Assembly: GCA_035527835.1 (NCBI GenBank)
Contig: DATKZS010000229.1
Coordinates: forward strand, 1 to 43,073
Length of the DNA stretch: 43,073 nucleotides
Reading direction: 5' to 3'
DNA from: a bacterium
GTDB taxonomy: Bacteria > RBG-13-61-14 > DATKZS01
In this document: positions 1,317 to 39,667 of the stretch, piece by piece
Layout: the number at the start of each line of letters is the position of its first letter
How positions within the stretch are numbered: the stretch's first letter is position 1
Position numbers and translations under genes: made by a program
The notes under the pieces: model-generated
Databases searched by the model: none
What the model was told of the DNA's origin: nothing
Seen by the model: only the letters and a program-made list of their open reading frames with translations

Positions 1317-2705
1317 ATGGCTGGCATGAAGATACTGATCATCGGCGCCGGGGAGGCGGGAGTTTACCTGGCGCGGGTGCTGTCGGAGGAGAACCACGAG
1401 ATCGTGATCATAGACCACGACCAGTCGCGCCTGGATTCGGTCGAGGAATCGCTGGACGTGAAGACGGTTCTGGGCCACGGCGCGGCCGCCGGTGTTTTGG
1501 AGCGGGCGGGGGCCTGGGGCGCGGACATGGCGCTGGCCGTGACCAATGATGACGAGGTCAACATGCTGGGGGGCTATTTCTCCAAGGTGCAGGGCGCGAA
1601 AAACGCCATTGTCCGGCTGCGGGGCGGTGAGAACCTCCAGTATCACCGCAACTTCTACAAGAAATGGCTGGGTCTTGATTCCATCCTGGTCCCCAACGAG
1701 TTGTGCTCCCAGGAGATTCTGGAGCTGGTCCGGGCCAAGCAGGCGGTGGCGGTGGAGAACTTCGCGGACGGCCGCATCCAGATGCGCCAGATCCAGGTGA
1801 CCTCGAACTCCAAGCTGATCAACCAGAAATTGGCCAAGGTCAAGATGCCGGAACAGACCCTGGTGACCGCGGTCATCCGCGGCGGCGAGATCACGATCCC
1901 GAGCGGCGACACCGAGATCGCGGCGGGAGACGAGCTCTTGATCGTCGGCCACACCCATGCCATGGACGGGTTTGAGAAGCTGGGCGGAAGGAGCGGCAAC
2001 GGCGAAACGCTGGTGGTGATCATCGGGGGAGGCGAGCTGGGCCTTTCCGTGGCCCGGTCCTTGGAATACACCAACACCCGGGTCCGGCTGATCGAGGAGG
2101 ACCGCGAGCGCGCGGAGGCCATCTCCGACGAGCTTGATGAGGTCACGGTGCTTCACGGCGACGGCACGGACGCCGTCCTGCTTCGGGAGGTTGGCGCGGA
2201 CAACGCCGATGTTTTCATTTCGGCCTGCGGCGAGGACGAGAAGAACCTGATGAGCTGCCAGCTCGCCAAGAACATGGGCGCGAAAAAAACCATCGCCCTG
2301 GTCAAAAAGGCGGACTACGTGGCCATCTACCATAAGCTGGGCATTGACGCCGCCATCAGTCCCCGCCTTTTACTGGCCCAGAAAATTCTCCGCTACGTGC
2401 GCAGCGGCGCCATCAGCACCATCGCCGTGATCGGCGAGGGCAAGGCCGAGGTCATCGAGATCGAGGCCATGCCGGAGAGCAAGGTGGCCGGCGCGCCCAT
2501 CTCCCGGATCGGGTTTCCGCGCGGGGCCATTATCGGCGCGGTGGCCCGGGAGGAAAAGGTTTTCATCCCCGACGGGAGCTTCCAGATCCAGCCGGGAGAT
2601 TCTTGCATCGTCTTCACGTTCGTTGAAAACCTTCCCTTGGTGGAAAAATTTTTCAAGGGCAAGAAAAAGCTGGTTTTCTGGAACGGCAAGGGCGGCGGGT
2701 CTTGA
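1317..2705 (+). CDS. trkA: Trk system K+ uptake protein TrkA (two tandem NAD-binding RCK domains)
   Basis: Two Rossmann GxGxxG motifs (IIGAGEAG, IIGGGELG), 462 aa. Directly followed by trkH with a 4-bp overlap. Confidence 0.9.
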   Translation: MAGMKILIIGAGEAGVYLARVLSEENHEIVIIDHDQSRLDSVEESLDVKTVLGHGAAAGVLERAGAWGADMALAVTNDDEVNMLGGYFSKVQGAKNAIVRLRGGENLQYHRNFYKKWLGLDSILVPNELCSQEILELVRAKQAVAVENFADGRIQMRQIQVTSNSKLINQKLAKVKMPEQTLVTAVIRGGEITIPSGDTEIAAGDELLIVGHTHAMDGFEKLGGRSGNGETLVVIIGGGELGLSVARSLEYTNTRVRLIEEDRERAEAISDELDEVTVLHGDGTDAVLLREVGADNADVFISACGEDEKNLMSCQLAKNMGAKKTIALVKKADYVAIYHKLGIDAAISPRLLLAQKILRYVRSGAISTIAVIGEGKAEVIEIEAMPESKVAGAPISRIGFPRGAIIGAVAREEKVFIPDGSFQIQPGDSCIVFTFVENLPLVEKFFKGKKKLVFWNGKGGGS

Positions 2706-8715: not shown

Positions 8716-8788
8716 GGTGGAGGGGACACTCTTGTCCCCTCACATCGGGCCGACAGGAGTGTCGGCCCCACCTGGTGTCGGCCCCACC
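8716..8788. repeat. REP-like compound palindrome, copy A (GGTGG-GGGGACACTCTTGTCCCC-...-GGCCGACAGGAGTGTCGGCC-CCACC, plus a duplicated right end)
   Basis: Two hairpins with GACA-N4-TGTC cores that are reverse complements of each other, bracketed by GGTGG/CCACC. The same architecture recurs at 12304, 23761, 25006 and 39591. Confidence 0.6.
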
Positions 8789-12303: not shown

Positions 12304-12416
12304 GTGGAGCCCGACACTCTTGTCGGGCGGCGTCGCCAAGGTCGAGGGGCGCGGGACAAGAGTGTCCCGCCCACCATAAGGTTGGCACTTGCGGGGACAG
12401 GAGTGTCCCCGCCACC
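12304..12416. repeat. REP-like compound palindrome, copy B (full unit 12304-12373 plus extra half-unit 12390-12416)
   Basis: ggtggagcccGACACTCTTGTCgggc...gcgGGACAAGAGTGTCCcgcccacc, then ggggacaggagtgtccccgccacc. Ends at the GH51 start codon. Confidence 0.6.
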
Positions 12417-23760: not shown

Positions 23761-23814
23761 GGTGGGCGGGACACTCCTGTCCCGCGCCCGCCCGACAAGA
23801 GTGTCGGGCCCACC
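23761..23814. repeat. REP-like compound palindrome, copy C
   Basis: ggtgggcGGGACACTCCTGTCCCgcgcccgcCCGACAAGAGTGTCGGGcccacc, in the divergent intergenic region. Confidence 0.6.
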
Positions 23815-25005: not shown

Positions 25006-25062
25006 GGTGGAGGGGACACTCCTGTCCCCTGCGCTTGGGCCGACGGGAGTGTCGGCCCCACC
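25006..25062. repeat. REP-like compound palindrome, copy D
   Basis: ggtggaGGGGACACTCCTGTCCCCtgcgcttgGGCCGACGGGAGTGTCGGCCccacc, between convergent gene ends. Confidence 0.6.
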
Positions 25063-33790: not shown

Positions 33791-34879
33791 ATGAGGAAAA
33801 TATTTTTGTTATTGCCGGCGCTGTTGGTGGCGCTGGCGGCGGCGGGAGTTCAGGCCCAGACCCGGCATGACAGCGCTGTTTTCGTGGTGGACGTCTCCGG
33901 CACGGTAAGCGGCGGGGCCGAGGTGGCGGAGGCGGCGGGCATAGTCAAGGACATGAACTCGCGGTTTCCCTCTTACGTCAAGTCGGCGGGCCTGATGGTG
34001 TTCGGCAATCTGCACATTCCGCAACAGGAATGGCTTTATGGAGTAGGCAACTGGGACCGGGGCGGCCTTGACGCGGCCACGGGCAAGATCTCCATGGGCG
34101 GCGGCCCGACCCCCATCGGCGCGGCCATCGTTAGCGCCGGGGACGAGTTGAAAAAATCCCAAGGCAAGACGGCCCTCATCATCGTGAGCGACGGGCTGAA
34201 CACCGGCGCCACTGACCCGGTGGCCAAGGCCAAGGCGGTCAAGGACCAATACGGCGCGAACGTCTGTATCTTCACCATCCAGCTCGGCAATGACCCGAAG
34301 GGGGAGGCGTTGCTCGCATCACTGGTTCAGGCCGCGGGTTGCGGCAAGGCCTCGTCCGCATCGGCCCTGACATCGGCCGACGCTTCGCAGGCGCTGGTGG
34401 ATTATATCTTCCCTCCCGAAATCATAGCCCCTCCTCCCCCGCCGCCGGTGGTTGCTCCCAAGGACAGCGACGGCGATGGAGTGTATGACAACGCGGACCA
34501 GTGTCCGGGCACGCCGCGCGGAGCCAAGGTTGACGCCCGCGGCTGCTGGGTGCTCACGGACATCAAGTTCGACTCGAACAAGGCCGACATCAAGCCCGAA
34601 TACGTGGATGAGCTCGACAGCGCGATCAAGGTGCTCGAGGACAATCCCGACCTCAAGATCACGATCGAGGGCCACACTGACTCCGCGGGATCGGATGAAT
34701 CCAACCTCGAGCTGTCGAACCGGCGCGCGCAGGCGGTAATGGATTACATGGTCGGCAAAGGCATTGATGCCGGCCGGCTCACGGCCAAGGGCTATGGCGA
34801 ATCCAAGCCCATCGCTGACAACAACACGCCGCAGGGCATGGCGCAGAACCGGAGGATCGAGCTCAAGGTCGTCCAGTAA
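33791..34879 (+). CDS. Secreted vWA - thrombospondin type-3 - OmpA-like peptidoglycan-binding protein
   Basis: Signal peptide. vWA-like VFVVDVSGTVSG. DSDGDGVYDNADQCP TSP3 calcium-binding repeat. C-terminal OmpA motif TDSxGSDxxNLxLSxRRA. Start taken at the MRKIFLLL ATG (33791). Confidence 0.8.
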   Translation: MRKIFLLLPALLVALAAAGVQAQTRHDSAVFVVDVSGTVSGGAEVAEAAGIVKDMNSRFPSYVKSAGLMVFGNLHIPQQEWLYGVGNWDRGGLDAATGKISMGGGPTPIGAAIVSAGDELKKSQGKTALIIVSDGLNTGATDPVAKAKAVKDQYGANVCIFTIQLGNDPKGEALLASLVQAAGCGKASSASALTSADASQALVDYIFPPEIIAPPPPPPVVAPKDSDGDGVYDNADQCPGTPRGAKVDARGCWVLTDIKFDSNKADIKPEYVDELDSAIKVLEDNPDLKITIEGHTDSAGSDESNLELSNRRAQAVMDYMVGKGIDAGRLTAKGYGESKPIADNNTPQGMAQNRRIELKVVQ

Positions 34880-39590: not shown

Positions 39591-39667
39591 CGGTAGGACA
39601 GACATTCTTGTCTGTCCGGCGGTAGACAGGCAAGAATGTCGGGACAGACAAGAATGTCTGTCCTACC
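39591..39667. repeat. REP-like compound palindrome, copy E (AT-richer variant: three GACA-N-TGTC cores, GGTAG/CTACC brackets)
   Basis: ggtagGACAGACATTCTTGTCTGTCcggcggtagACAGGCAAGAATGTCGGGACAGACAAGAATGTCTGTCctacc. Confidence 0.55.

Follow-up and report, generated by a model that had tools for sequence, protein, structure and literature searches.

We propose that the five repeat loci in the window, a whole metagenome contig of 43,073 nucleotides, are REPs, mostly head-to-head dimers of the BIME/REPIN kind, and that they are very probably the non-autonomous partners of one family of RAYT (TnpAREP) transposases of the Y1 HUH class. We read the repeats as REPs of a RAYT family because (i) a RAYT gene is linked to REPs of this type in related genomes and (ii) a reverse search that starts from the RAYT proteins leads back to them. 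An earlier note on this DNA had assigned the repeats to the REP/BIME type mobilized by RAYTs, an assignment now supported by the tagged inverted pairs and by REPtrons in related genomes.

Anatomy of the repeats in the window

The 43-kb window was scanned for a tag G[TG][AG][AG], 0–1 nt, an 8-bp stem with at most one mismatch and a 4-nt loop, which gave 11 REP monomers at five loci (Table 1), all intergenic as judged by gene calls and Pfam matches. The earlier note had listed five repeat loci, and all five are present where it had placed them. In the same contig (ENA ERZ27256828 k141_396166) lies an RNase Y gene; no named relative exceeds about 70% identity to its product. Each monomer comprises 24 nt, built from a 4-nt tag, an 8-bp stem (4 variable base pairs followed by GACA), a 4-nt loop and the return stem. 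The tag, 0–1 nt from the stem, is GTGG in nine of the 11 monomers and GTAG in the other two, both in copy E; the loop is CTCY in the nine GTGG monomers and TTCT in the two GTAG monomers. The flanking GGTGG described previously is more accurately a 4-nt tag, GTGG, abutting the 8-bp stem.

Table 1. Positions of the REP monomers and associated features in the window, with the genes on either side of each locus
Feature	Position	Strand	Description	Gene context
REP dimer A	8717..8771	.	head-to-head; DNA fold of two hairpins closed by a tag/tag' stem, z = -5.6	divergent; ZapB-like gene (-) / FAD oxidoreductase (+)
A, left monomer	8717-8740	+	GTGG tag, stem AGGGGACA, loop CTCT	
A, gap	8741-8747		7 nt between monomers	
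A, right monomer	8748-8771	-	GTGG tag, stem GGCCGACA, loop CTCC	
A, right-end tandem duplication	8772..8788	+	16 nt; GTGTCGGCCCCACCT twice, read from the sequence	
REP cluster B	12304..12415	.	three monomers; fold of three hairpins, z = -5.0	tandem; M3 peptidase (+) / GH51 (+); end of B 16 nt ahead of the GH51 start codon
B, monomer 1	12304-12328	+	GTGG tag, 1-nt spacer, stem GCCCGACA, loop CTCT	
B, monomer 2	12351-12374	-	stem GCGGGACA	
B, monomer 3 (extra)	12392-12415	-	stem CGGGGACA	
REP dimer C	23762..23813	.	head-to-head, 4-nt spacer; fold z = -5.4	divergent; UDG (-) / Zn-phospholipase C (+)
C, left monomer	23762-23785	+	stem GCGGGACA	
C, right monomer	23790-23813	-	stem GCCCGACA	
REP dimer D	25007..25061	.	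head-to-head; fold z = -4.4	convergent; Zn-phospholipase C (PLC) (+) / PLP enzyme (-)
D, left monomer	25007-25030	+	stem AGGGGACA	
D, right monomer	25038-25061	-	stem GGCCGACA, one mismatch, core GACGGGAGTGTC	
REP dimer E (sister subfamily)	39593..39666	.	GTAG tags, stem GACAGACA, loop TTCT; fold z = -11.6	tandem on the minus strand; modB-like permease / Zn-ribbon gene
E, left monomer	39593-39616	+		
E, internal degenerate partial copy	~39621-39640			
E, right monomer	39643-39666	-		

At all five loci the hairpins form head-to-head pairs with the tags outermost, which is the palindrome of two palindromes that had been described. The particulars of single copies were likewise borne out: the duplicated right end of A is a 16-nt tandem repeat, the extra half-unit of B is a third monomer, and E is a variant in both tag and loop that in addition holds a degenerate internal partial copy. 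So were the mixed gene contexts and the proximity of B to the GH51 start codon. The outer stems occur in five versions in the window, AGGG/CCCT, GGCC/GGCC, GCCC/GGGC, GCGG/CCGC and CGGG/CCCG, which differ by compensatory changes. Since the paired monomers of A–D differ in their outer stems, these copies fold as separate hairpins when treated as single-stranded DNA (z = -4.4 to -5.6), with a tag/tag' stem closing A–C, while E, a homodimer, folds as one long REPIN-like hairpin.

These numbers of cores are far from what the composition of the window would give. The pattern GACANNNNTGTC (GACA-N4-TGTC) has 10 matches in the window against 0.29 expected, a count reached in none of 100 shuffles, and GACACTCYTGTC with at most one mismatch has 11 matches against 0.28 expected. 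The monomer scan additionally returned two hairpins that do not belong to the family and matched one family hairpin again on the opposite strand; because Markov-shuffled windows yield about four matches each, these three extra matches are at chance level. Neither a scan for perfect-stem hairpins nor the tag, stem and loop scan found any further family member in the window.

Some relations among the copies may be recorded here. Dimer C and cluster B have two stem types in common (GCCCGACA and GCGGGACA). The sequence TAATGATTTTTT adjoins both A and E, and was not seen as a general feature. Dimers A and D are alike in stem pair and in spacer length, and their REPs are near-identical, while the sequences of their spacers are unrelated. 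If whole dimers were simply copied, divergent spacers between near-identical REPs would not be predicted; the pattern suggests either that the hairpins are under selection or gene conversion, or that dimers are put together from single monomers.

Occurrence of the double core in other genomes

One genome per species (596 Gb) was scanned for the double core GACACTCYTGTC-N8-38-GACARGAGTGTC, and the pattern was found at at least 113 loci in at least 75 assemblies labelled as about ten phyla. By our own arithmetic, which takes 22 fixed and 2 two-fold positions with 31 allowed spacings and assumes uniform base composition, well under one match would be expected by chance in 596 Gb. Among the matches listed, the assemblies are labelled Verrucomicrobiota (39), Acidobacteriota (21), Planctomycetota (3) and Armatimonadota (3), with one assembly each from Bacteroidota (Kapaibacterium), Ignavibacteriota, Cloacimonadota, Calditrichota, Ca. 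Electryoneota and Desulfobacterales; two unclassified assemblies and one “Klebsiella”, which is probably mislabelled, are also among them. The phylum labels are those of the submitters. Mis-binning cannot account for this breadth, since several of the matches sit on megabase contigs or complete chromosomes.

In the other genomes, units fall in long ORFs in 40% of cases compared with 76% for random positions, so that by this crude stop-to-stop measure they are under-represented in such ORFs. Where they do occur inside genes, insertion can be in frame: REP dimers are found in frame at one carB site shared by two species, and at one locus, L088, a whole RAYT together with its REPs lies inside metH.

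Conserved tag and covarying outer stem

The units of the window and of the matches listed (at least 113 loci) were combined into a family set of 119 units, in which the inner four base pairs and the loop are fixed by the search pattern. The core is thus imposed, and its conservation is meaningful only because the number of matches is far above chance and because features that were not selected for co-occur with it. The tag, which is absent from the search pattern, is one such feature: positions -8 to -5 upstream of GACA are occupied by G (98%), T/G, A/G and G/A. The family monomer may be written as the pattern G[TG][AG][AG]-N0-1-N4-GACAYTCYTGTC-N4.

The tag counts among the matches listed are GTGG 60, GGAG 58, GTAG 42, GTGA 23 and GTAA 21, so the consensus across the family, G-K-R-R, is relaxed from GT[AG]G. 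The looser forms (GGAG, GTAA and GTGA) depart from the canonical GT[AG]G, and this counts against our main reading. Tags are identical in 74% of pairs from within one assembly and in 16% of pairs from different assemblies, and the tag is in this sense a property of the genome.

The outer stem is the second unselected feature. Watson–Crick pairing amounts to 95% at each of positions -1 to -3 and to 78% at -4, and falls to chance further out. Among 150 distinct monomers, 95.2% of cells are paired (74.3% in shuffles) and double changes occupy 235 cells (73 in shuffles). The resulting covariation score of 0.488 compares with 0.108 in shuffles, none of 500 shuffles reaching it, and with values of at most 0.095 in slid controls. 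G-U pairs are rare in these monomers.

Taken over all blocks there are 295 monomers of the form GACA-YTCY-TGTC; their outer stem is paired in 96%, and a G-K-R-R tag lies on the side predicted from the orientation of the loop in 94%. This bears on another explanation of the repeats, namely that they act as structured RNA, or that a dimeric transcription factor recognizes GACA-N4-TGTC as an operator in double-stranded DNA, for which the conserved palindrome of the 12-bp core and the placement of A and C in divergent promoter regions might be cited. We consider this very unlikely. The loop is asymmetric (CTCY) and has a defined strand relative to the tag, which a symmetric operator would not require; the neighbouring genes are unrelated across the at least 113 loci; copies lie between convergent genes and inside ORFs as well; and G-U pairs are rare. 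Moreover, no Rfam family reached the gathering threshold at the repeats when the whole window was searched, the only matches being a 6S RNA and a Moco riboswitch, both elsewhere.

Intrinsic terminators were considered and rejected: T-runs lie within 25 nt of nine of 118 units, close to the background of 6.4%, and no terminator-like site was called at A or B. A primarily RNA-level or terminator role is disfavoured because G-U pairs are rare, T-runs are not enriched, Rfam gives no match and the units occur in every intergenic context. The earlier note had argued from compensatory stem variation for selection on structure, whether as RNA or as a cruciform. Selection on structure is upheld by the outer-stem covariation, but the scarcity of G-U pairs and the lack of T-run enrichment disfavour RNA, and we favour a single-stranded DNA hairpin as the selected form.

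A linked RAYT transposase

We searched the ORFs around the units, together with those of the window, by phmmer with the RAYT/TIRYT sequences that Di Nocera et al. 2013 provide as supplementary data. RAYT-like ORFs were found at four loci (L007, L086, L088 and L096), and these form one cluster when the ORFs are clustered. At each of the four, GACACTCYTGTC units lie on both flanks of the ORF within about 100 nt, which is the arrangement of a REPtron. The assemblies that carry them are labelled Verrucomicrobiaceae, Haloferula, Acidobacteriota and Verrucomicrobiota.

All four proteins, of which that of L086 has 199 aa, match Pfam Y1_Tnp, and their best NCBIfam model is REP_Tyr_transpos (REP-associated tyrosine transposase), with one protein scoring 102 bits and so passing the cut-off. 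An HUH motif, “MPNHVH”, and a Y motif, “YIxxNP”, are common to them. Among solved structures the best match is 4ER8, the E. coli TnpAREP, with ISDra2 TnpA as the second-best PDB match, and the best pairwise matches in the Di Nocera set are the RAYTs of P. fluorescens, P. putida and S. maltophilia (E = 1e-11 to 1e-12). The family is very large: when clustered at 90% identity, its members (E ≤ 1e-10) fall into at least 7,603 groups.

All-against-all clustering of the 3,857 ORFs around the units revealed no gene generally linked to them other than the small RAYT cluster. Among the matches listed, a RAYT is present in only four of the 113 blocks that were ascertained through their REPs, and we conclude from this that the REPs far outnumber the gene. 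An IS200/IS605 insertion sequence was also rejected, as the gene is absent at 109 of the 113 loci among the matches listed and a single REP type occupies both flanks.

The identity of the linked gene is also relevant to the possibility that the units are MITEs, which would stem from an insertion sequence and be mobilized via their terminal inverted repeats by a DDE transposase. In favour of this, units are bounded by inverted ends (GTGG...CCAC), and the copies in one Gemmataceae MAG are near-identical, spacer included. This origin is nevertheless extremely unlikely, since the only recurrently linked gene is the Y1/HUH RAYT and not a DDE transposase. Direct repeats of 2–6 nt flanking the 119 units are no commoner than at control positions 40 nt farther from the units, so that there are no target-site duplications above the control level. 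Spacers vary from 10 to 38 nt (the pattern allowed 8–38), with neither length nor sequence conserved. Finally, single monomers and head-to-tail arrays exist: over the window and the at least 113 loci, adjacent monomers are head-to-head in 124 cases, a count that includes the window's own pairs and an arrangement ascertained by the search, head-to-tail in 20 and tail-to-tail in nine, with 15 singletons.

The phmmer search, which included the window ORFs, found no RAYT gene in the 43-kb window itself. The repeats might consequently be regarded as orphan or domesticated REPs, kept for a host role such as protection of mRNA 3' ends, translational coupling, or binding of a nucleoid protein or gyrase, with no need for an active RAYT. 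Persistence of the A and D hairpins beside a wholly diverged spacer, a sign that selection or gene conversion may act on the hairpins themselves, speaks for such a role, as do the end of B just ahead of the GH51 start codon and the in-frame dimers that persist at the carB site of two species. On the other hand, the copies occur in divergent, convergent and tandem contexts alike, so that one role at the transcript level cannot account for every copy, and T-runs are not enriched and G-U pairs are very few. We regard this explanation as unlikely; it is, moreover, compatible with a RAYT origin rather than an alternative to one. On our main reading, against which the lack of a RAYT in the window counts, such an enzyme is predicted to be encoded elsewhere in the window's own genome.

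Reverse search from the RAYT

An alignment of the RAYTs was used to search for related proteins, which led to 80 loci on metagenome contigs; together with L007, L086, L088 and L096 these make up the 84 loci analyzed. In about four fifths of the 84 loci, tagged perfect hairpins are present within 350 nt of the RAYT gene, and the core of the hairpin tracks the RAYT clade. The core is GACActcy at L157, L164 and L191; GACAttcy, the type of window copy E (GACATTCYTGTC-type REPs), at L117–L119, L128, L129, L137 and L147; and GACAatcc at L153 and L161. Other cores near RAYTs include GGCGtcc, GGCAtct, GGCGacc, ACTTgcc and more. Both core types of the window, CTCY and TTCT, were thus recovered beside RAYTs by a search that started from the protein.

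The loop on the tag strand is nearly always pyrimidine-rich (TYC, TYCY) at RAYT loci, and GACA cores adjoin the RAYT gene and are almost absent elsewhere in the flanks. In a rough neighbour-joining tree the CTCY type appears in at least three separate places, among RAYTs that are about 40% identical; being scattered in this manner, the GACA-CTCY core would be either old or repeatedly regained.

Proposed mechanism and implications

A mechanism can be outlined by analogy with the E. coli, Stenotrophomonas and Marinomonas systems. In single-stranded DNA, for example at a replication fork, the tag-bearing strand would fold into a hairpin, of which the RAYT would read the conserved part, namely the loop and inner stem (GACA-YTCY-TGTC). 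The enzyme would then cut and rejoin the DNA beside the element, using the tag to tell the strands apart or as a guide, and monomers and dimers would in this way be copied or moved into intergenic DNA. Cutting of these REPs by the RAYT is predicted, and the tag may serve as the guide. The outer four base pairs of the stem would drift by compensatory change because pairing alone is needed there. The pattern of conservation, in which the loop and inner stem are fixed, the outer stem covaries and the tag is specific to the genome, would fit such a division between enzyme and guide.

A broader interpretation, which we put forward tentatively and hold to be somewhat doubtful, is that GACA-YTCY-TGTC is a lasting substrate core of one RAYT family over about ten phyla (Acidobacteriota, Verrucomicrobiota, Planctomycetota, Armatimonadota, Bacteroidota/Ignavibacteriota, Cloacimonadota, Calditrichota, Electryoneota and others), with only the tag and the outer stem being lineage-specific. 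If this were true, the repeats would constitute the widest-ranging single REP sequence family described, and REPs could no longer be viewed as species-specific. Such a core would likewise point to separate roles, the loop and inner stem being read by the protein while the tag is an exchangeable guide. On this reading the REP/RAYT system tolerates in-frame insertion in essential genes, as in the metH and carB cases.

The family offers a natural mutational series, with thousands of linked RAYT variants, in which the part of a REP that is read by the enzyme could be told apart from the part that acts as guide, and its spread over many poorly studied phyla makes vertical inheritance of the RAYT/REP system testable against transfer. 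For annotation, the units explain many conserved intergenic palindromes and odd in-frame inserts (...RTLLSA...DRSVR...) in proteins of Verrucomicrobiota, Acidobacteriota and Planctomycetota.

Comparison with known systems

REPs, BIMEs/REPINs, RAYTs and REPtrons are well described. Binding of IHF, DNA gyrase or Pol I is a trait of E. coli BIMEs and does not define REPs. To our knowledge, REPs and RAYTs have been studied almost entirely in Proteobacteria, with each REP sequence treated as species-specific. Searches of the accessible literature for the exact core strings returned only unrelated primers, and the RAYT/REPIN literature on these phyla added nothing new. REPs have been stated to be species-specific (PMC6006769), which does not hold for the present repeats. 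The RAYTs studied bind the folded single strand in a strand-specific manner; in REPs that are perfect palindromes, recognition depends on particular bases of the loop while changes in the tag are tolerated; and the tag, which stands in place of the guide tetranucleotide of IS200/IS605, can alter the cleavage site (PMC8266576).

The E. coli REP/BIME system with its TnpAREP (4ER8) resembles the present one in the tetranucleotide tag at the foot of the hairpin, in the inverted dimers of two REP subtypes (Y/Z in E. coli; heterodimers with differing outer stems in 66 of the 119 units here) and in the REPtron, where the RAYT gene lies between its REPs. In contrast, the E. coli REP is an imperfect palindrome with a bulge for which GTAG is strictly required (PMC8266576), whereas the palindromes described here are perfect, with a conserved loop and a varying tag, and their RAYT carries about 45 additional aa behind the first strand.

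Closer parallels are found in the Group 3 RAYT systems, such as the Pseudomonas REPINs, Stenotrophomonas SMAG GTAG-6 to -9 and the Marinomonas REPtron, whose REPs are short perfect palindromes and where a head-to-head dimer can make one long hairpin, as copy E does. In perfect-palindrome REPs, SELEX has identified loop positions as critical (PMC8266576). These systems differ in that their REPs are reported to be species- or genus-specific, while here a 12-nt core is present in assemblies with about ten phylum labels, and in that their RAYTs are only distantly similar to those described here, at the E-values given above.

Tagged REPs are also known from PVC bacteria. GTAG-17 to -22 have been described in Opitutus terrae and Rhodopirellula baltica by Di Nocera et al. 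2013 (PMC3733652), according to whom GTGG is a frequent tag in O. terrae GTAG-20, the REPs are mostly head-to-head dimers, and in-frame insertions into ORFs are frequent. The peptides listed as encoded by these REPs (e.g. GTGVPPV and VGPALAAG) do not fit GACACTCYTGTC, and by this comparison of peptides the present family may be distinct from GTAG-20.

IS200/IS605 elements (IS608, ISDra2) have in common with the present system a Y1 HUH enzyme, single-stranded DNA hairpins and a 4-nt guide located 5' of the hairpin foot (PMC8266576). In those elements, however, the gene travels in multiple copies with two different end hairpins, whereas here the hairpins are dispersed without the gene. As a kind of element, the REP/RAYT system found here is already known; what appears unusual, judging from the sequences compared, is that one core is common to assemblies with about ten phylum labels.

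Conserved cores and genome-specific tags

Among the matches listed for the REP-bearing loci L001-L113 (75 assemblies), the hairpin core is identical and the 4-nt tag at the hairpin foot is genome-specific, with GTGG, GTAG, GGAG, GTAA, GTGA and GGGG each found as the tag of particular genomes. Among the same matches, tags are identical in 74% of pairs within an assembly versus 16% between assemblies, and the palindrome extends at least 2 nt past the tags in roughly 30% of units.

REP units and RAYT in coding frames

In two Pyrinomonadaceae (L087 and L055), a head-to-head REP dimer interrupts carB at one shared position without shifting the reading frame; the peptide at the insertion site reads ...DALADCDGA[RTLLSA...ADRSVRAP]CVVICGIQEHIE..., and the length of the dimer spacer differs between the two species. 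The reading frame also stays open through several other REP units that fall within long ORFs, at L004/L026, L010, L018, L036, L079 and L082.

At L088, a methionine synthase (metH) ORF contains, in frame, a complete RAYT domain together with both of its flanking REP dimers. The Pfam domains follow in the order S-methyl_trans, Pterin_bind, Y1_Tnp, B12-binding_2, B12-binding and Met_synt_B12. The RAYT occupies the linker that joins the pterin-binding domain to the B12-cap domain, and it lacks its own stop codon. Either a tolerated insertion or an artefact of assembly could account for this arrangement.

Features of the window and of REP-bearing loci
Feature	Location	Strand	Description
14-bp hairpin	window:5227-5257		perfect GC palindrome, GGCCGCGGCCGCCG-ggc-CGGCGGCCGCGGCC
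6S RNA	window:7819-8010	-	Rfam RF00013, 96 bits
AT-rich motif	window:8789-8804	+	TAATGATTTTTT(T)CCG, beside outer end of REP copy A
13-bp hairpin	window:34903-34934		followed by TTTATT
AT-rich motif	window:39570-39585	-	TAATGATTTTTT(T)CCG, beside outer end of REP copy E
modB-like permease	window:39678-40340	-	downstream of Moco riboswitch
modA-like binding protein	window:40402-41232	-	downstream of Moco riboswitch
Moco riboswitch	window:41564-41688	-	molybdenum cofactor, RF01055, 40.8 bits
Y1 transposase fragments	L021:1-576 and 1576-1881	-	second type, Acidobacteriaceae MAG
carB	L055:5958-8000	-	REP dimer, Pyrinomonadaceae
carB	L087:4198-7503	+	REP dimer, Pyrinomonadaceae
metH ORF	L088:2831-7141	-	in-frame RAYT and REPs, Acidobacteriota MAG JALZKH010000067.1

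Sequences beside the REP copies and other structured elements

The AT-rich motif has 2 matches against 0.15 expected (up to 3 mismatches); it directly touches the duplicated end of copy A and is separated by 7 nt from the tag of copy E. Across the family as a whole, REP units are not generally accompanied by T-runs.

Two further hairpins in the window proved unrelated to the REP family: the 14-bp palindrome separates the RNase Y gene from the YmdB-like gene and sits beside the RNase Y 3' end, and the 13-bp hairpin follows an ORF that ends at 34879. The 6S RNA is located immediately upstream of ZapA/ZapB-like genes. The Moco riboswitch precedes the modA-like and modB-like genes, and REP copy E follows immediately downstream of the permease gene.

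A second Y1 transposase type

The Y1 fragments at L021 lie apart from the REP unit of the same block, and are similar to the acidobacterial 'TIRYT' group (Di Nocera 2013).
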